Assembly: GCA_965220505.1 (NCBI GenBank)
Contig: CBDCQE010000001.1
Coordinates: forward strand, 1,411,692-1,475,691
Reading direction: 5' to 3'
From: Dehalococcoidia bacterium
Lineage (GTDB): Bacteria; Chloroflexota; Dehalococcoidia; Lucifugimonadales; UBA3495
DNA: 64,000 nt
The notes beneath the pieces are model-generated. The model saw nothing but the letters and a program-made list of their open reading frames with translations. It had not been told where the DNA came from and made no database searches. Positions within the stretch are counted from its first letter, which is position 1. Each line of letters opens with the position of its first letter. Position numbers and translations under genes: made by a program. Shown here piece after piece: positions 3,315 through 25,760 of this stretch.

Positions 3315-4226
3315 TCATTTAGGCTGGTCACAGAACATGAACTGACCGGCGTAGCCGGCATACTGGCCAAACGTGCCCTGGGCCCACAACCTGATCGCCG
3401 CGTCATTTTTCGGCGCAGCGGGGTAATTTTGGGTCACGAAGCTCCGTATGTGCCTATCAATAGGGAAAGCCTCGGTTTTGTCCAGCGAAAACAGTGAAAT
3501 GCAGTCGGCGATTTTGTCGCCTATGCCCTCCAGCCGTTTAACCGCCCGTTTGGCGTGAGGGTAGGACTCGCTCCGCAGTGCATACAGGTTCAAGTCGCCA
3601 TTGCACACTTCGCGCGCCGCCCCGGCGATTTTCCGGTCGCGTTGGAGACCGAACTGCATCCCCTGGAGGCTCGCGGCTGCGGTTTCCGTTATCAGAAGTT
3701 CGGGTGCCGGGAAAGTGTGACGCGCTTTGCCGCACATTTCAATGGTGTCGCCAAACGCTGCGGAGATGCGTTCGACGATGCTTGAAATACGGGGGATGTT
3801 GTTGTTGGCAGAGCACAAGTAGGCAACGGTGCATTCCCACGGGTCCTGACGCAGCAAACGCATGCCACCGTAGTTTTCGATTAGCCTGGCAATGCTGGCG
3901 TCGCGGTTGGTCAGATCGCTGTAGATGCGCGAAACATCGTCATCCAACCTGAAGTAGCCTTGCAGCAGTGTCCGAACGTCCTCGTCGTCAGCCGGTCCAC
4001 CGAATTTAGACGCGCGGTATTCGACGCGCGAACCGACCTGGCGCAAATGGATCAGAAAACTCCCGAGCACTCCGGAGTGCCACTCGCTGTCTGGATGGCG
4101 CCCACCATCTTCCAATTTGTCCACGCTGCCGTCCAACTTGCGCCACCGAAACGCTTGCCCCATATACAAAGTTAGCCTGAGGCTGAAGGGCTGGGGGATT
4201 TCCAGTTCACCTTCAACAATGTTCAT
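3315..4226 (-). CDS. OGG1-type 8-oxoguanine DNA glycosylase paralog b
   Basis: GQAFRW, MRLLRQDPWEC, CSANNNIPRI, GIGDKIADC, FPIDRH, GYAGQFMF; start placed at ATG 4226 behind GGAGG. Confidence 0.9.
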   Translation of the reverse strand: MNIVEGELEIPQPFSLRLTLYMGQAFRWRKLDGSVDKLEDGGRHPDSEWHSGVLGSFLIHLRQVGSRVEYRASKFGGPADDEDVRTLLQGYFRLDDDVSRIYSDLTNRDASIARLIENYGGMRLLRQDPWECTVAYLCSANNNIPRISSIVERISAAFGDTIEMCGKARHTFPAPELLITETAAASLQGMQFGLQRDRKIAGAAREVCNGDLNLYALRSESYPHAKRAVKRLEGIGDKIADCISLFSLDKTEAFPIDRHIRSFVTQNYPAAPKNDAAIRLWAQGTFGQYAGYAGQFMFCDQPK

Positions 4227-8773: not shown

Positions 8774-8911
8774 AAGCCCTACCAGTCTATGCGTAGCCCG
8801 GAACGGCGTCAACGCCGGCGCAGCCTCACGCGTACCCGGTTGGCGGCGGGGGAGCGATTGGCATGGATGCACGGGATAAACGGGATGATTCCAGATTGGG
8901 CTTGGGGAGTT

Positions 8912-9021
8912 GTCAGAAGCGGGATTTGCGGGGTTTTGTGATTGGGCGGGATTGGGAGGGTTTCATCGGGGGACGGTCCCAATCCTGGTAATCCTCAAAT
9001 CTTGAAAATCCTGCTTCTGAC
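8912..9021. repeat. 110-bp imperfect palindrome (GGGATT/AATCC-rich) in the divergent intergenic region
   Basis: gtcagaagcgggattt (8912-8927) pairs with aaatcctgcttctgac (9006-9021), 15/16; inner gggattggga/tcccaatcct arms. Confidence 0.75.
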
Positions 9022-9156
9022 GGTTCCGGGCCGGACGCCGGCGGCTGGGCGGGTGGTTGGGGCTCAAATGGGGGAATTGGGCGAAATTGGGGTGAGGTTA
9101 TGGATATGTGATCATAAACTCGCAGCGGATTGTGTTCCGGTCATGCAGTTTTGCGG

Positions 9157-9236
9157 TATAGTACGCGCCGAGTTACGGCGACGAGACACTGCCGAGGCTC
9201 GGGCCACCCGAATTGAACGCGAGGTAGATGACGATG
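9157..9236 (+). promoter_or_regulatory. Putative -10 (TATAGT), RBS (GAGGT) and start ATG of the giant surface-protein gene
   Basis: TATAGT 9157-9162; GAGGT 9221-9225; ATG 9234; no convincing -35 element. Confidence 0.45.
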
Positions 9237-12200
9237 AACAGCAGCGGCCTTCGCAACAGACGTTCTCGCCCCCTGATCCGCGGGGGGGGGGGGGGAAGAA
9301 AGCTCTAAGATGGCCCCTGCTGCCCCTGGCCGGCGTGCTGGCCCTGGCCCTGCTGGCGGTGTTCGTCGCCATGCCGGAGCGGACCGCGCGGGCCAACCAC
9401 AACCCCCCGGCGCCCACCAACCTCCAGTTGGATGGGGCTGTCACCGATACCGCGATCCGAATCAGGTGGAATGCCCCGTCGGATACGACCAACGTCTCCT
9501 GGTACCGCATGGACATTCGGACCAGCCCGTCCGGAAGCTGGGGCAAAGTCTTCTCGAAACAAGCTTCTTTTCCCCGCACCCACACCTTCACGGGACTTCA
9601 GAGCGGTACCGCCTACGACGCACGGGTTCGTTCATGCTATAGCGATAGCGTCAGTCACTGCGGCCAAGGCGTCCAGATTACCGCATCTACGGCCTCGGCT
9701 ACTTTCTCCATAGCCAACACACAAACTGCGGCGCAGGGACTAAACCAAAGTAACATCGACACGAATTACAGGTTGGCCTTGGCCGGCACCACAGTGTCCT
9801 GCTCCGGCTCCGGATTCACTGCTTGTAACAGCCACCTCGAAATCGTCACCAACCCGACGACGGCGGGGCTGAGCATCCTCCGATCCTTACCCGATGGTAA
9901 TGGGATCGCGGTAATAATCAACAAGGACAGCGACTTCGGCCCCTCGCAGGGCTTCACGGTGGCGCTCAAGCTCAAGGCCTCGGGCCACACCGGCACCTAC
10001 GACATCACCTCCAACGCGCTGAGCGTGACGGTCTTAAAACAGCCCGACTCGCCCACGAACCTGAGATTCACCAACACAGGCTCGCCCAACTCGGTCACGT
10101 TCCAGTGGGACCCGCCCAGCGACACCAGCGGCGGCAAGGTCGTGACGGGCTACGACTACCGCTACCGGGTGACCGATCCGGACCAGGGCGCCGGCGACAA
10201 CTGGACCTATCGCAACACCACCGTCACGAGCGCCAACGTCACCAACCTGATGCCGGCCACCGAGTACGACTTCTCGGTGCGCGCCAAGAACGCGCTCAAC
10301 TCGAGCGCTTACGCCACGGCTGTGACGCATACGACGGCCGTGGACCCGGCGGGGCCGCCGGGCAAGCCCACTAATCCGAGGGGAACCGCACTATCCTCCA
10401 CCGAGATCAGGTTCCAGTGGGACGCGCCCGCCGCCGGCTCGGGTGGAACGTTCGCCTATTACCAGTATGATGTCAAGCTCGCCACCGAGACAAGTTGGGG
10501 GGCGCCCTCTGGAGGAACCCCCAACATCAACACTCGAGAGTTTAGGCCCACTGCCCTGCACCCCGGCACGACCTACGAGTTCCGGGTGCGGGCGTGCAAG
10601 TCGAGCGCAGCGACCAATTGCGGCCCGTGGTCGGACACGGCCAGCGCGACGACGAACTACATCCAGCCGAACGCGCCGCCGAACTTCGCAGCCTCCGCGC
10701 TCAATAACAACAATAACGGCACCGACCGGCTGACCTGGGACCCGCCGACGAACACCGGGATCCAGAATTACCAGGTACAACGGCTACGGGACGGGCAAAC
10801 GACCTGGGAGCAAGCGGTCCAGCTTGCGGCCACGCAGACGCAATACGACTTCGCCAAGGCGTCCGGCACTTCGGGCAGCGCCTACCAATATCGCATGTGG
10901 GCGACGGCCGGCACCTTTGTCGGCGCTATTGCGCCGGCAGTCAAGGTCGCCGGGCAGCCGGGCCAGGTCAGCGACCTTACGGCGACGGCGTCCACCACGG
11001 CGGTGGCGGTGGACCTCGCGTGGACCGCGCCGTCCGACGGCGGCAAGGACCTGACCGGCTACTTGATCCAGTGGCGGGAGGACGAGACCGGCAACTGGAA
11101 TGCACCGCGCGGCGCCGATGGAAGTACGACGGCCCCCGCCGGCGCGACCAGCTTCACCGTCGATTCGAGCCACGGCTTGCAGACCGGCACCGTGTATGAC
11201 TTCCGCATCCGGGCGGACAACCCGGACCGCGGCAGCTTCTTCAGCAACACCGCCCAGGCGGACCAGGCGACGGTGAATATCGGCGCGTCGGTTACGGGCA
11301 CCAGTCCCACCACCCTCAAGGAGGGCAACCTGGACGGGGCGACGCTGACGGTGGACCTGGCCGGCGTGACGTATGCGTCCAGCATTGCCGCGAGCCAGTT
11401 CAGCGTGCGGCGGGCGTCCGACGACGCGGCGATTGCGGGGCTGAGCGTGGCCTCGGTGACGCGCGACGGCAGCAACACGGCGACGCTCACGCTGGCCTAC
11501 GCCTGGACCGACGCGGCGATGACGGCGGACACGGACATCGAGGTCGTGGTCCAGGCCGCCGCCCACTCCGGCGGCAGCGGCCTGGTGACCGGCCCGGTGT
11601 CGGTGGGGCATTTCGCCAGTACGACCGGTTCCCTGCCTTCGACCGCCACCGTGGACGAGGGGGACGACGGCAGCGTCGTGATTACGCTGACGGAGCCGGC
11701 GCCCGAGGCCATTACGATTGAATGGTGGACGGCCCCGGATACGGCTGCAGCGAATGTTGACTATACGCATGTGCCGCAAGCCAGCCCCAACGAGGTGGTC
11801 ATTCCGGCCGGCAGCACGACCAGCGGGCCCTTGCCGCTCTCCACCATCGAGGACACCCTCGACGAGGACGACGAGACGTTCTCCGTGACGGCGGGCTTCA
11901 AAGTGGGCACGCTGGGGAATCTGGCCGGCAAGGCGTTCTTAGATGTGCTGGCCTCACGAACCGTCGTCACCATCACCGACGACGACGACCCGCCGACGCT
12001 GTCGGTGAGTTTGCCCAGCGTCCTGGAGGGCGACAGCGGCACGACGGCGATGCCGTTCACGCTCACGCTCTCGGAGGTGAGCGGGCGGACGGTGACGGTC
12101 GGTTACCAGTTCGGCAACGTTCCCGCCGAATTCGGAGATCCGGTTGAGAACGATGACCTGGTGACCGGAACCGGTACAGTGTCCTTCGCGCCGGGTGAGA

Positions 12201-15200
12201 CGAGCAAGACCGTTACGACCGCCATCATGGTGAACGGGGACACTGTCGTCGAGCCGGACGAAGTCTTCGACCTTGTGTTGAATAGTCCAGGCGGAGGCGC
12301 AATCTTCGTCCGCGACAACTCGCGGCCCGAGTTCCGCGTGCCCTTCGACAGTAATGCCCAGCTCGTCGGCACCATCCGCAACGACGACATCCAGCCGACG
12401 GCCATCGACCTGAGCGTCAGCCCAACCAGCGTCGGCGAGGGGGTGGGCGCGGCCCAGGTCACGATCACCGCGTCCTTCCCGCCGGGCAGCGGCACGCTGG
12501 ATACGGCGACCGACGTAACGGTAGCGGTGGGCGCGGGCGCGGACAGCGCGACCGAGGGCACGGACTACCAGACCGTGGCCTCGGTTCCGATCAGGATCCG
12601 CGCCGGCAATGGGTCGGCGACGGCCACCTTCACCCTCACCCCGACGGACGACACGGCCTCGGAGGGCAACGAGAGCATCTCGATCACCGGCGCCGCGCCG
12701 GGTTTCACCGTCAATCCCGCCACCCTCACCCTGGCAGACAACGACCAGTCGGCGTCCATCTCCAGCCCGTCGTCCCTGACGGAGCGGGGGCTGAACGGGG
12801 CGCAGTTGACGGTGGACCTGGATGAGACGCAGTACGTCTCTTCCCTTGCGCCCAGCGATTTCGGCTTCCAGCCGCCAGGCGCCCTCCGCGATCTTTCCGT
12901 CGCATCGGTCAGCCGGAGGAGCAACACGCGCGCCGTCCTGACGCTGCGGTTCACCGGCGACATCGGCATGGACGTGCAGTTAAGTGTGGTAGTTGACGGC
13001 TCGGCGCATACCAGCAGCGGGTCGCTGACGACGGCTGCGGTCACGCTCACCCAGGCGCCGACGCCGGGTCGGGTTACGGGCTTGGGCGTGACGGGCGGGC
13101 CGGCGAGCCTGACGGTTAGGTGGAACACCGCCTCGAACGCCGACAGGTACAGCGTGTCGTATTGGCCGACGGACAGCCCGGGTGACATCGTCACCAGACG
13201 GGTTGATGGCGGGTCAACGTCCCGTACCAGCATCGGCGGGCTGGATGGCGACACCGAGTACTCGGTGCGAATGGTCGCCACCAGCAACTTTGCCCCCGAC
13301 GGAGCCGCGTCGGACACCGTCTCGGCGACCACGCTGCCGGGCCACGCCATCGTGTCGGCCACCGACCCGTCGCCGCTGACGGAACGCAACCTGGACGGCG
13401 CGACGCTGACGGTGGACCTGCTGCCCGACGTGTACGATCCGTGGGCGCCGCAGTTGGACCGCGCACGGGGATTTGACCGCGCACGGGTCACCGCATCCGG
13501 CGTGCCCGGCGTCACAATTGCCGACGTGACCCGGGTGTCGGACACGCGCATGGTGGTCACGCTGGCCTCCGACGACACCGATTTCGACACCGACCGCCGT
13601 CTTCGGGTGGAGTTCTACTCGGTCCACACCAGCATCGAGACGATCACGGCCGTGGCCGACGTCCAGGCGGTGGTGGAGGCTCCGCCGGGCCGGGTGCGGA
13701 ACGTGCGGGTAGTGGCCGAACCGCAGCGCATCAATGTGACCTGGGACCCGGTGGAGGGCGCCACGGGTTACCGGGTGGAGTGGAGTCCGGCGGCGTCCTA
13801 CGGCTCCTCCTTCCACAAGGAATGGCCCTGGCCCACCCGGTACAGCATGGGGGCGTTGCAGCCGGGCACGGAGTACACGGTGCGTGTGGTGGCGACCAAG
13901 GCGCGGGCGCCGGACGGGCAGCGGTCGGCCGGCGCCCGCGCAACCACGCCGGCGTTTGGCGCAATGCTGACCAGCACCGAGCCGTCGGAGTTGACGGAGG
14001 ACAACCTGAACCGGGCGCGTCTGACGGTGGACCTGATGGGCATCGAGTGGGTGCGCCAGGTGGAGGGCCGGTACTACCGGTTCCAGCTGGGCCGGGTCAA
14101 CGACTGCTCCGAGGCGGCGTACTACGACAACTGCCAGGACTTCATCGTGAACCGCAGCGTCGCGGTTGCCGGCGTGGAGCGGGTCTCCGGCTCGCGGGCG
14201 ATAGTCTCGCTGCGGGCGCGCAACGTGAACCTGGAAGGCAACGGCTTGTGGCTGCGCTTCCCCGACGATATGCACACGCATTACTACGGCGAGGAGGACT
14301 TCATCGTCCTGGAGGTCATCGCGCCCGGTGAGACTGGCCTCAACATGAGGGCCAGCGTCACGGTGGCCGCCGCCGACCCGGTGGCGGTCAACGAGGGCGG
14401 CTCCGCGGCAACCTACACGGTGGTGCTGGACGGCCAGCCGTCGGGCGACGTGACCATCGCGATGAGCAGCGACAACGGCGATGTCACGACGCAACCGGCC
14501 AGGCTCACCTTCACGCCGGACAATTGGGATACGGCGCAGACGGTCAGCGTCCGCGCCGGCCACGACGATGACGCGGCGGACGATGTCGCCACCGTGAGCC
14601 ACGCGGTGAGCGGGGCGCAGGGCTACGCCGGGATTGCGGTGGCGTCGGTGTCGGTCAGCGTAGCCGACGACGACACGGCCGGGGTAACGGTGACACCGAC
14701 CGAACTCAGCGTGAACGAGGGCGAGTCAGCCAGCTACACGGTGGTTCTGGACACGCAGCCCGTCGGCGACGTGGGCATCTTGGTGGTCGCCAGCACCGGC
14801 CTATCGGCGCAGCCGACTGAGTTGACCTTCACGCCCGACAACTGGCGGAACGCGCAGACCGTAACGGTCAGCGCCGCCCAGGACGACGATACGGATGACG
14901 GGACGGCCTGGATCATCCACTCTAGTGGGGCCGGTCCCGATTCCGGGTACGACAGCGTGCCGGTTGGCAACGTAATCGTGGACATAATCGACGACGACGA
15001 ACCGGCGACCCTGCCGGCCCAGCAGGAGCCGGAACCGGAACCCGGCACCGTAACGGTGAGCGCGGCCAGCCTCAGCGTCCGCGAGGGCGGCGACGGCGCG
15101 ACCTACACGGTGTCGCTGGACGTTGAGCCCACGGAGAACGTGGTAATCGCGGTGTCCAGCGACAACGGCGACGTGACCACGCAGCCGTCCAGCCTCACCT

Positions 15201-15979
15201 TCACCGCCGGCAACTGGCAGGCGGCTCAGACGGTAAGCGTCAGCGCCGGGCAGGACGACGATAAGGCGGACGACACGGCCACCCTCAGCCACGCGGCCAG
15301 CGGCGGCAACTACGATGGTGTTGCGGTGGCGTCCGTAGCCGTCAGCGTGACCGACGACGACAGCGACCGGGCGGTGCTGGAGGCGTTCTACGACGCCACG
15401 GGTGGCCATAGCTGGACCAACATCGGCAACTGGCTGAGCGACAAGCCGCTGAACCAGTGGCACGGCGTGACCGCCAACGGATCGGGGCAAGTGACTGGGC
15501 TGTCCCTGCGCGACAACGGCCTGAGCGGGTCCTTGCCCGCTGCGTTGGGCAACCTGGACAGTCTGCAAGTCCTGTCCCTGGACCGGAACAGCATCAGCGG
15601 GTCGCTGCCGTCAGAGTTGGGCAACCTGTCCAACCTGACCCGGCTGGCGATGAACCGCAACAGCCTCAGCGGCGCCATACCGTCGCAGTTGGGCAACCTG
15701 TCCAATTTGAGCATCATCGGCCTGGCGCGGAACAGCCTGAGCGGGTCGCTGCCCAACAGCCTGGGCAACCTGAGCGGGCTGACCAAGGTGTCGCTGCACG
15801 ACAACACGGGACTGAGCGGGGCGCTACCGTCGGGGTTCACCAACCTGGCGAACCTGCAACGGCTGGCCATCGCCAACACGGGGCTGTGTCTCCCGGACAC
15901 GCAGGCGTTCGACGACTGGCTGGCCGGCGTGCCCGACAAACCGGGGATCGACGGGCTGGCGGACTGCGCCTCGCCATAG
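9234..15979 (+). CDS. Giant secreted/surface protein: signal peptide, FN3 repeats, Calx-beta-like domains, unnamed repeats, C-terminal LRR; out of frame from ATG 9234 at G14
   Basis: KKALRWPLLPLAGVLALALLAVFVAMPERTARA signal; FN3 motifs (W..P, Y.VRVRA); EDTLDEDDETF and VEPDEVF Calx-beta-like motifs; 24-aa LGNLSNL..L.L..N.LSG.(L/I)P repeats after 15360. Confidence 0.85.
9282..9295 (+). repeat. G14 homopolymer in the signal-peptide-coding region (contingency-locus-like)
   Basis: 14 consecutive G between the RBS-preceded ATG 9234 and the hydrophobic segment. Confidence 0.9.
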
Positions 15980-22839: not shown

Positions 22840-24318
22840 ATGGCATCCAATATTCCATCCGACCCATCCGAGACCGATGCGTCTCAAACCGGTCAGAGGC
22901 CACGGTTAATGCGCCGGCCCAGGATCTTCTACGGGTGGTGGATCGTCATCGTCAGCCTCGTTGCCGACGGGATGAAGCACGGCAGTTTCAACCGCGGTTT
23001 CACCGTTTTGTACGTGCCGGTCGAAAGCGAGATCATCTTCCCGAAGAGCGTCCTGGGCTTCAGCCCGCAGTCCCGGACCATGCTGGGACTGGCGGAGGGA
23101 CTAGGCAGGTTCATGGGCGGTGTTCAGGGCCCGTTGATGGGATATTGCACCGACCGGTTTGGTCCGCGCGTGATGCTGGCGTTCGGTGGGTTGATGTCCG
23201 GCCTTGGGTTCATTCTGCTGGCGCGCACCACCAATTTCTGGTGGTTCCTGCTCGTGTTCGTGGTGTTCCTCTCCGTGGGTTTCCGGTCGGGCTACAACAA
23301 CGCGTCGATAGCGGCCGTGAACAACTGGTTCCGTCGCCGGCGGGGCTTGGCCATGTCGGTGGTCAGCATGGGCAACGGTCTCGGTGGCGCGTCCGCCTAT
23401 CTGGTTGGCCTGCTGGTTTTCCTGGTGGGATGGCGGGATGCCTGCACCATCCTCGGGGTCGCAATCCTGGCGGTGGTCATACCATTGTCGTATTTCCTGC
23501 GTCGTTCCCCCGAGGACATGGGTCAGTTGCCCGACGGGGACCCGCCGGAACTCGCCGAGACGAACGCATCGGAGCGCAGTGCGGTGGCGCGCCGCCGCTC
23601 CACGAACGTGGGGGATACCGATTTCACCGCCCGCGAAGCGATGCGAACACCCTCGTACTGGCTGCTGGTCATGTCGACCGGTTTCCGCAACATCGTCCAC
23701 GCCGGGGCCTCGTTTCTGATGGCCCCGCTGATCATTTGGTTCATGGAGGCCGGAGTGCCGGTCGACCCAGCCTCGGAACAGGGCCAGAGACACATCATCG
23801 TGGCCGCCGCTTTTGTGAGCGCCTTCTCCCTGGCGAATATGGTGTTCAACCCGTGCATGGGCTGGATTGGGGACAAGGTGGACCGGCGCAAACTCAGCGC
23901 ACTATGCATGCTCGCCGGCGCGGCAGCGCTGGGATCACTGCTCACCCAGAGCGGACACCTCTGGCAGGTCGTCGTGTTTGTCCTGTTGCTGGCCTTTGCG
24001 GAGAGCGCAAACCCACTGAACTGGGCCATCATGGGCGACTTCTTCGGCCGCAGGGCCTACGCTACCCTGCGGGGATGGCAACACCTGCCCGACCAGTTGG
24101 CCTCAATGTGGACCGCCATGTGGATGGGCGCCATATACGACTACACCAACAGTTTCTATTGGGCGCTGTTCCCGCTGGTCTTATTGTACATCGCTGCAGC
24201 CATCGGCTACTGGTTTCTGCCGCGACCTCCGCTGCCGAGGCGGCTGCAATTGCAGCAGGAACGCAGCACCGGCAGCCGCAGCCGAGCGATTCGCACCGCG
24301 CCGGAGCCGGCTGGCTAG
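22840..24318 (+). CDS. MFS transporter
   Basis: IFYGWWIV, GYCTDRFGPR motif A, WFRRRRGLA, DFFGRRAY; ~12 hydrophobic segments. Confidence 0.88.
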   Translation: MASNIPSDPSETDASQTGQRPRLMRRPRIFYGWWIVIVSLVADGMKHGSFNRGFTVLYVPVESEIIFPKSVLGFSPQSRTMLGLAEGLGRFMGGVQGPLMGYCTDRFGPRVMLAFGGLMSGLGFILLARTTNFWWFLLVFVVFLSVGFRSGYNNASIAAVNNWFRRRRGLAMSVVSMGNGLGGASAYLVGLLVFLVGWRDACTILGVAILAVVIPLSYFLRRSPEDMGQLPDGDPPELAETNASERSAVARRRSTNVGDTDFTAREAMRTPSYWLLVMSTGFRNIVHAGASFLMAPLIIWFMEAGVPVDPASEQGQRHIIVAAAFVSAFSLANMVFNPCMGWIGDKVDRRKLSALCMLAGAAALGSLLTQSGHLWQVVVFVLLLAFAESANPLNWAIMGDFFGRRAYATLRGWQHLPDQLASMWTAMWMGAIYDYTNSFYWALFPLVLLYIAAAIGYWFLPRPPLPRRLQLQQERSTGSRSRAIRTAPEPAG

Positions 24319-24440
24319 CCCGTTCAGAAATCAGGGGCGACCTGTAATCGCCAAAAGCCGGAGAAATCGCTCGACGATATGCGACAGGGTAAGCGTGGTA
24401 CGACCTGGCAATTTGCCTCGCCTTTACCTTCGAGGTAACC

Positions 24441-25760
24441 ATGGGCAAGCGTGAAACGCCGACAGGGAGATTAGCCCGTCTTCTGGATGGCGACCTGTCA
24501 TTTCAGACGCCATCTCGGCTCGCCCATCCGTTGTACGCGCTTCACCCGTTTGCGGCACGGTTTCCGTACGGCTTGCCCGGGTATTTCATCGACGCCCTGA
24601 CGGAGCCCGGCGGCACAGTACTGGACCCCATGTGCGGGTCGGGTATCACGCTCCTGGAAGGGTGGGCGGCCGGCCGGGCGGTTATCGGTGTGGACCTGGA
24701 CCCGCTGGCGCGACGGCAAGCGAAAGCCCGCACCACGGCTCTCGGTAACGCGGAGGTCTTGGAGGCTGGTCAGGCGGCACTCCGCCGGACGGCGGACCTC
24801 ATGGCTGGGCTAGGCCCACAACGTGACCCGTTGGAGGCCGTAAGGGCAGACATGGATTCCCCAACGCGGGAATTCCTGGACTATTGGTTCTTCCCGGAAA
24901 CGCAACATGAGCTAGCGTGCCTTACCCTCGCAATCCGGGAAGAGTCCGATGCGGACCTGCGCAACCTGCTGGAAGTGATCTTTTCTTCCACGATTGTCAC
25001 CAAGTCGGGTGGTGTGTCCCGGGCCCGGGACTTGGCCCACACTCGCCCGCATCGCGTGTCCGGCAAGGCGCCCCGCCGGCCGATCCCCCTGTTCGCGAAC
25101 CTGGTCGAACGCGCTGCTGGTGCCTACGGGAGCATAAACCGGGACGCGGTCGGCGAGTGTCGGATCATGGACGGAGATGCGCGTTCGCTGCCGTTGCCGG
25201 ATTGCAGCGTGGACCTGATCGTGACGTCGCCTCCTTACGCCAACGCGCTCGATTACATGCGTGCGCACAAGTTCTCCCTGGCGTGGCTGGGCGACCCCAT
25301 CCCGTCCCTGACCAAGTTACGGCGCGAGTACATCGGCTCGGAGGCTTCTGGCAACCAGGCGGCGACGTCGGTTGACTCGCTGCCGGCAAAGGTCGAAGCC
25401 GTGGTCGAGCGCGTCGGCGAGGCGGATGCCACGAAATCCCGCGTCCTGCGGCGGTACTTTGCTGATATGTCGGCGTCGATCTCCGAGATGCAGAGAGTGC
25501 TCCGGCCCGGGTCGGCGGCGGTGATCGTGGTGGGTCCTTCCACCATGCGCGGGATATTGGTGCCTACCCACGAATGCCTGGCGAATTTAGCCACGCAAGC
25601 GGGATTGGACGTAGTGGCGGTCGCTCCGCGAAACCTGGACCGCGACCGGCGGATGATGCCGGCGCGGAATGCTAGACGTACCGGCAGCGGCAACATTGAC
25701 ACGACGGGCATCGAGCGGCGGATGCACACCGAGTACGTCATCGGCGCGTTGATGCCCTGA
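24441..25760 (+). CDS. Orphan amino-DNA methyltransferase (likely N4-C; motif I before motif IV)
   Basis: VLDPMCGSG SAM-binding motif then IVTSPPY catalytic motif; no restriction endonuclease adjacent. Confidence 0.8.
   Translation: MGKRETPTGRLARLLDGDLSFQTPSRLAHPLYALHPFAARFPYGLPGYFIDALTEPGGTVLDPMCGSGITLLEGWAAGRAVIGVDLDPLARRQAKARTTALGNAEVLEAGQAALRRTADLMAGLGPQRDPLEAVRADMDSPTREFLDYWFFPETQHELACLTLAIREESDADLRNLLEVIFSSTIVTKSGGVSRARDLAHTRPHRVSGKAPRRPIPLFANLVERAAGAYGSINRDAVGECRIMDGDARSLPLPDCSVDLIVTSPPYANALDYMRAHKFSLAWLGDPIPSLTKLRREYIGSEASGNQAATSVDSLPAKVEAVVERVGEADATKSRVLRRYFADMSASISEMQRVLRPGSAAVIVVGPSTMRGILVPTHECLANLATQAGLDVVAVAPRNLDRDRRMMPARNARRTGSGNIDTTGIERRMHTEYVIGALMP

Follow-up and report, generated by a model that had tools for sequence, protein, structure and literature searches.

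A homopolymer of 14 guanines (G14) in the genome of a Dehalococcoidia bacterium (Chloroflexota; Lucifugimonadales; UBA3495) is likely to act as a slipped-strand, simple sequence repeat (SSR) based switch of translation. The analyzed window is a stretch of 64,000 nucleotides of contig CBDCQE010000001.1 (GenBank assembly GCA_965220505.1, positions 1,411,692 to 1,475,691 of the forward strand). As read directly from the sequence, the tract occupies positions 9282–9295 of the + strand, and it is located in the signal peptide-coding 5′-end of a gene for a giant surface protein. Four features of contingency genes were found at this locus, namely a repeat in the 5′ coding region, a reading frame that toggles when the tract length is changed in silico, a tract length that is an outlier, and a length polymorphism among homologous copies.

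Reading Frames Around the G14 Tract

The Shine-Dalgarno (SD) sequence GAGGT (9221–9225; this and all following features of the locus are on the + strand) was found 8 nt upstream of an ATG at position 9234 and is identical in a paralogue and in L207, a homologous locus from another genome. From this ATG, a leader of 16 codons (MNSSGLRNRRSRPLIR; 9234–9281) extends to the tract; this leader would constitute the basic n-region of a signal peptide if the tract was in phase. With G14 as assembled, the frame reads MNSSGLRNRRSRPLIRGGGGGRKL* and is terminated after 24 codons by a TAA (9306–9308), which closes the leader frame in the G11, G14, and G17 phase.

The remaining part of the predicted signal peptide (9296–9394) is encoded in a different phase than ATG 9234, in a large frame of 2,345 codons that is open from 8942 to 15979. 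It comprises KKALRW, the hydrophobic core LLPLAGVLALALLAVFVAM and the c-region PERTARA with A-R-A in front of NHN. This layout of n-, h-, and c-regions was assigned by eye and yields a long n-region of 26 residues, which is unusual. The tract is positioned 48 nt downstream of ATG 9234 and 15 nt upstream of the KKALRW/h-region frame. The predicted mature protein (9395–15979) consists of six FN3 stretches, Calx-beta domains and a C-terminal LRR cap (Pfam matches: fn3, 3e-61; Calx-beta, 5e-15; LRR_14, 1e-11), and its C-terminal ~500 aa are shared by at least six paralogues. The gene body of 6.7 kb is open throughout.

Replacement of the tract in silico resulted in three classes of products. With G12, G15, or G18, an open reading frame (ORF) of 2,247–2,249 aa was obtained, which begins with MNSSGLRNRRSRPLIRGGGG(G)KKALRWPLLPLAGVLALALLAVFVAMPERTARA|NHN and in which the tract encodes four to six glycines. 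G11, G14, and G17 gave products of 23–25 aa only, and G13 and G16 led into the third, wrong frame with a product of about 135 aa. A preliminary description of this DNA had named ATG 9234 with its GAGGT at a distance of 8 nt, the TAA stop, and the read-through into signal peptide and full protein with G12 or G15; the first two were confirmed in the sequence and the last by the replacement.

Start Codon of the Giant Surface Protein

Comparison with homologous loci supports ATG 9234 as the real start codon. The paralogue in the same genome (G000; position C1:2398349) shares approximately 255 nt of upstream sequence, the SD and the leader with the window locus at 92% identity. Its tract is a G17, by which leader and signal peptide are fused in a single frame of 1,438 aa (MNSRSLRSRQPRPLNR-GGGGGG-KSLRWPLLPLAAVLALALL..., with KSLRWPLLPL... 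after the six glycines). The best database homologue of the giant protein, P0002 from another genome (46% identity over the first 500 residues), begins with MNSSGLRNRRSCPLIRGGGGEKPLRWPLLPLAAVLALALLAVFVA, and in the public annotation its gene begins with the leader ATG (MNSSGLRNRRSCPLIRGGGGEKPLRWPLLPL). The DNA encoding P0002 is the locus L207, which is 92% identical to the window over 480 nt of the 5′ region and carries a G13 that likewise fuses leader and signal peptide in frame.

A further giant-gene locus, at C3:~231,900, shares the window sequence 8902–9187 at ~92% identity. Downstream of this module follow TAGGAGGG, 8 nt, and an ATG, from which MFRRENPIPVS-PPP-IFRIVKLTSWRALFALLAIGLL... 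is encoded. Here, the tract has decayed to C6TCC, and the leader that starts at the SD-ATG continues in frame into the signal peptide. Judged by its sequence, this is a locked-ON copy, and it shows that the leader, the tract, and the signal peptide belong to a single ORF. At the window locus, a second ATG (9228–9230) directly after a TAG is in frame with ATG 9234, two codons upstream of it (MTMNSS...). It is probably unused, being only 2 nt away from the SD.

Length Variation Among Homologous Cassettes

Five cassette copies found in three assemblies were aligned; these are paralogues and homologues and not strains of one species. All consist of an SD, an ATG, a basic leader of 16–18 codons, a G tract, and a signal peptide. 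The flanks of the tract are nearly invariant (CTCGCCCCCTGA(A/T)CCGC, G(n), ..AAA.CTCTAAGATGGCCCCTGCTG). The tract is in frame in the paralogue at C1:2398349 (G17) and in L207 (G13) and out of frame in the window (G14) and in L210 (G9) and L211 (G7), both from one third assembly. Whether homologues carry such a tract had been raised in the preliminary description; the alignment provides G7, G9, G13, and G17 between conserved flanks. At the level of sequence, conserved flanks combined with varying length are the signature of a hypermutable repeat. The public gene calls of L210 and L211 (P0011 and P0010) begin inside or after the hydrophobic core, as expected of gene callers confronted with an OFF allele.

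Long G/C Tracts in the Genome and Their Genes

The genome has a size of 3.88 Mb in three contigs (C1, C2, and C3) and a GC content of 63%. Over the whole genome, the number of G/C runs drops approximately ten-fold with each added base, down to four runs of 8 nt. Beyond this length, there is one run each of 9 and 10 nt, a gap at 11–12 nt, and a group of eight runs of 13–20 nt. The A/T runs end at 8 nt. Compared to a first-order Markov expectation, G/C runs of at least 7 nt are rare (42 observed vs. 1,232 expected) and those of at least 13 nt are in excess (8 vs. 0.9). The histogram is bimodal with an approximately 30-fold depletion of runs of 7–12 nt; the genome is purged of intermediate runs and keeps very long ones as a discrete class. 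A shuffle test of the G9 count within the window alone gave a weak result, since 7 out of 100 shuffles reached the observed value. Loss of mismatch repair was considered as the origin of the tracts and was ruled out. The genome encodes MutS, a second MutS-family gene and MutL, and is therefore not repair-deficient.

All ten runs of at least 9 nt are located upstream of genes for giant secreted proteins. The nine tracts of at least 10 nt are found 13–45 nt upstream of the basic/hydrophobic start of a signal peptide, and the ORFs behind them have lengths of 355, 1,054, 1,188, 1,414, 1,635, 2,076, 2,080, 2,227, and 2,714 aa. Each of the nine tested products is a surface-type protein with FN3, Calx-beta, LRR, He_PIG, LapA-domain, or GLUG matches. 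The tenth run, a C9 followed by TCGACTTTGGGGG (C3:690,496–690,504), is located ~200 nt upstream of the ATG of a gene for a secreted protein of 2,981 aa and may be a promoter/5′-untranslated region (5′-UTR) version of the switch or a decayed tract.

Eight tracts are preceded by an SD-ATG and a leader of 6–16 codons. In the assembly, the leader is fused in frame at C1:2398349 (G17), C2:240149 (C16), and C3:295352 (C20), the last of which has no other start codon. The other five are not fused in frame. Two of these, the window locus (G14) and C1:1683332 (C18), are out of frame and have no alternative start; C1:2154448 (C16) is out of frame and has an internal SD-ATG. At C1:360863 (C15) and C3:989808 (C13), the leader ORF terminates at a TGATG overlap with an internal ATG.

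In such cassettes with a second SD-ATG (also L208, ~1436–1505), one of the phases ends the leader ORF at a TGATG/ATGA overlap. Their sequence suggests three states, namely fusion, coupled re-initiation, and wrong-frame read-through, instead of two.

Proposed Mechanism and Alternative Explanations

According to the proposed mechanism, translation would start at ATG 9234 and proceed through the 16 basic codons and an oligo-glycine stretch encoded by the tract. A tract length that is a multiple of three (12, 15, or 18) would set the gene ON by leading into KKALRW, the hydrophobic core and the ARA cleavage site. The leader and the glycines would then be cut off with the signal peptide, and tract length would therefore leave the mature protein unaltered; with the tract placed in the n-region, in-phase length changes would be free of cost to it. 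In the other two phases, translation would terminate after 24 or 135 codons. The large frame contains no ATG, GTG, or TTG between the tract and the hydrophobic core, so that no exportable protein is expected in these phases. Slippage during replication of the tract would toggle the gene between ON and OFF at high frequency, and with each tract controlling a giant secreted protein, the cell surface would vary in a stochastic and combinatorial manner. In this model we infer slippage in vivo, its reversibility, the position of the promoter, the cleavage of the signal peptide, and the biological role. The phase variation proposed in the preliminary description is supported at the sequence level by the cassette comparison, the run histogram, and the association with giant genes.

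The assembled consensus is one base short of the ON phase, and the window allele may either be in the OFF phase or be miscounted by one base; the possible miscount is one of several points that weigh against this mechanism. Several other loci have their own SD and ATG downstream of the tract, which may tune expression there instead of switching the frame. About one third of tracts would be found in frame even if they were non-coding. No full σ70 promoter was detected in a scan of positions 8850–9400. Searches for the locus elsewhere in the same species returned nothing: the exact 29-nt flank pattern was unmatched in genome and metagenome contigs, no homologue fragments of the N-terminal 320 aa were found, and exact look-ups of the two upstream neighbor proteins were without match.

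The switch could be real and its OFF call an assembly artefact, the dominant genotype being G15 (or G12) with a miscounted homopolymer, which is considered rather unlikely. The errors that remain in long-read consensus sequences are mainly in long homopolymers, and the contig names of related assemblies (ctgN_cov x_l) seem to indicate a long-read metagenome assembler. Because of this error-proneness, the ON/OFF state of the window allele is uncertain by one base, and the earlier caution that the G14 length may be off by one still applies. However, five of the eight leader-bearing tracts are unfused, and unfused tracts were likewise found in other assemblies including the short-read L210 and L211; out-of-frame states are therefore the rule and not a one-off. 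Moreover, a heterogeneous population would look alike. A dead allele, i.e., a frameshifted pseudogene whose tract is a mutational scar without regulatory use, would explain that the leader ATG cannot reach the signal peptide as assembled. It is very unlikely in view of the fully open gene body, the retention of 13–20-nt tracts at ten giant-gene 5′-ends in a genome purged of shorter runs, the flanks that are conserved across genomes while the length varies, and the two of five copies that are in frame.

G14 would be a functional in-frame allele with the tract encoding Gly4 if translation started further upstream in the large frame, which contains ATG 9143, ATG ~9068, and TTG 8942. This is extremely improbable, since ATG 9143 has no SD and is an ATA in L207, and since the paralogue, L207, and the C3 locus show the corresponding upstream frame either interrupted by stops or in another phase. 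Such a start would also place 47–114 residues in front of the signal peptide, and the region 8902–9187 is a shared non-coding module. The comparisons with the paralogue, P0002/L207, and the C3 locus therefore make an in-frame upstream start unlikely, as the choice of ATG 9234 in the preliminary description had implied. In the case of programmed recoding, the gene would be out of frame permanently, and synthesis of the protein would depend on slippage of transcription or on a ribosomal frameshift at the G run. Very long homopolymers can indeed cause slippage of RNA polymerase, and some leakage from an OFF allele is plausible. Elongation slippage is documented mainly for A/T runs, however, and recoding sites conserve length and phase, whereas the lengths range here from 7 to 17 and an ordinary in-frame arrangement is found in two of the five homologues. 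Programmed recoding is highly improbable, given the variable length and phase and a leader RNA with nothing unusual in its fold (z-score 0.22).

Upstream Module and Mosaic Cassettes

The conserved module upstream of the cassette (8902–9187) is a candidate for the promoter and the 5′-UTR. It is common to the window locus, the paralogue, the third giant-gene locus (C3:~231,500–231,879) and L207, with 86–92% identity to the other loci, and the surrounding DNA differs. A putative −10 element, TATAGT (9157–9162), had been proposed in the preliminary description; the hexamer is present in all four module copies, 120 nt upstream of the tract, and the scan described above did not complete it to a σ70 promoter. 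The tract is located downstream of the SD and the start codon and not between −35 and −10, and transcriptional control as in promoter-spacer tracts is excluded at the G14 locus because of this position. A riboswitch or attenuator was considered for the 5′-UTR and dropped, the structure of the 5′-UTR and leader RNA being unexceptional.

A segment of ~150 nt upstream of the cassette (~8880–9030, …aatcctggtaatcctcaaatcttgaaaatcctgcttctgac…) occurs in at least ten copies with ~80% identity on contigs C2 and C3 and is probably a small dispersed repeat. In addition, a pair of genes for proteins of 91 and 123 aa is located directly upstream of several tract-controlled giant genes (L207, 439–1082; C3:230,799–231,478; C3:294,089–294,759; C1:1,683,638–1,684,582). 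The 123-aa protein has a weak retropepsin-like match (Asp_protease_2, 0.0018).

The locus L207 is syntenic with the C18-tract locus of G000 (C1:1,678,267–1,684,582), with the same small genes upstream and rpsB and tsf downstream at 90% identity. Its G-tract cassette and a large part of its gene body nevertheless correspond to those of the window gene (8902–15738). The 5′ cassettes and bodies are therefore mosaic between loci and species.

A cassette-based system of surface variation in a probably sponge-associated Dehalococcoidia can be proposed tentatively. In such a system, a portable 5′ module (promoter, SD-ATG, basic leader, 13–20-nt G/C tract, and signal peptide) would be recombined among giant FN3/LRR/Calx-beta proteins, the copies would be switchable independently, some of them in three states, and an IS4-like element would prefer the tracts. 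If true, nine or ten switches per cell would give hundreds of surface states.

Comparison With Known Contingency Loci

Homopolymer contingency loci are textbook knowledge in host-adapted pathogens such as Neisseria, Haemophilus, Campylobacter, and Helicobacter. Jonsson and colleagues reportedly described in 1991 a poly-G tract in the signal peptide-coding region of the Neisseria pilC gene. As in pilC, a G homopolymer is located between the start codon and a mature adhesin-type protein, its length would set frame and expression, and the residues encoded by the tract would belong to the cleaved signal peptide. In contrast to pilC, the tract follows a leader of 16 codons here and is part of a long basic n-region, in a member of the Chloroflexota and in front of FN3/Calx-beta/LRR products of 1,000–2,700 aa, and switching is deduced from sequence. 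The opa family of Neisseria carries CTCTT repeats in the signal peptide-coding region. The similarity to opa consists of paralogous surface protein genes, each with its own leader peptide repeat; the opa members switch independently and provide combinatorial variation. The repeat in the present system is a homopolymer and not a pentamer, the mosaic 5′ cassettes are common to unrelated bodies, and some have a second start overlapping the leader stop.

In Campylobacter, tracts usually have a length of 8–13 nt, and the genome is AT-rich and without MutS/MutL mismatch repair. In contrast, the tracts found here are 13–20 nt long (up to 27 nt in relatives), in a genome of high GC content with MutS and MutL. 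A few dozen G/C homopolymers were described per genome of Campylobacter jejuni, concentrated in genes for surface structures in a genome otherwise poor in long runs (PMC3025981; PMC8355987). This is similar to the long G/C tracts in surface protein genes that stand out from the run-poor genome analyzed here. For fim of Bordetella and porA and opc of N. meningitidis, poly-C/G tracts in the promoter, between −35 and −10, act on transcription. As in those systems, homopolymer length would control the expression of a surface protein at the window locus, where the tract lies downstream of the start codon. A promoter-type position seems to be given at other loci, namely for the C9 at C3:690496 and for a C12 in front of a TATAAT in the related genome G011.

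In full-text literature searches, no report of homopolymer contingency loci was found for Chloroflexota or sponge symbionts. The mechanism is known; the lineage, the gene class of giant eukaryote-like proteins and the portable mosaic cassettes are new. Giant FN3/LRR "eukaryote-like" proteins are thought to mediate the contact between symbiont and host. Should the tracts switch, stochastic variation of the surface, as in pathogens, would extend to uncultured symbionts and would also explain the variable presence of giant proteins in metaproteomes. Gene callers mis-annotate tract genes, either by upstream extension (to which the frame open back to 8942 lends itself here) or by truncation into the signal peptide (P0010 and P0011). 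Frameshifted giant genes in long-read metagenome-assembled genomes (MAGs) should thus not be written off as pseudogenes or polishing errors.

Distribution of Long Tracts in the Lineage

The G14 tract belongs to a lineage-wide set of such tracts in Dehalococcoidia, which are probably sponge-associated. Tracts of at least 12 nt were found in 30 out of 41 genomes of the order and in 19 out of 24 other genomes of the genus, with 21 tracts in G011, 23 in G012, and 60 in G006. Poly-G hits in L011, L014, L018, and L030 and a C104 in L013 were left out as contig-end or N-flanked junk. Six tracts of G011 are arranged as GGAGG, 8 nt, ATG, a basic leader of 16–20 codons, G12–20, tagaATGATG, and a signal peptide; the proteins are larger than 1,300 aa, and two of the six tracts are in frame. 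A search of the leader DNA against 40 relatives matched a signal peptide-like stretch only, and the cassette is not conserved at the DNA level in other species representatives.

Other tracts of G011 precede genes for multi-pass membrane proteins, one of them PMT/GT39-like, and for an LRR protein. The C12 of this genome is located immediately upstream of a TAGGGTATAAT box (TATAAT) and the ATG of a glycerate kinase gene, which is a promoter-type position. Based on the loci of the glycerate kinase and the PMT/GT39-like membrane glycosyltransferase (L060, ~4001–4040; L061), the tract-controlled genes of the genus would therefore be broader than adhesins.

In the relatives G003, G005, G006, G010, G011, and G012, ~95% of the tracts of at least 12 nt have a C in front of the G run (5′-C G(n), i.e., C(n)G-3′), and C tracts are often followed by GA(C/G)TTTG or GAGAAAAGG. 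These sequence preferences may point to a common origin of the tracts or to a requirement for certain flanking bases.

An insertion sequence (IS) element of ~1,337 bp with the terminal inverted repeats CTGACAGGGGTAGGTA was identified in G000 (C1:~23,770–25,105, corresponding to ~2,770–4,106 of L197) as well as in L079–L157. It encodes a DDE_Tnp_1 transposase (Pfam, 1e-11), had no match to a family in Rfam, and is 82–99% identical across many Dehalococcoidia MAGs. Very often, the element is flanked on both sides by poly-C or poly-G (C15|IS|C16, G12|IS|G15, and G21|IS|G7) and otherwise by a G/C-rich duplication of ~10–11 bp; it seems to insert into homopolymer tracts. A supposedly conserved leader upstream of the C10 tract at C1:25106 was dropped, as this sequence is the end of the IS element. 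The single copy of the element in G000 adjoins this C10 tract, which belongs to the gene of 2,714 aa.

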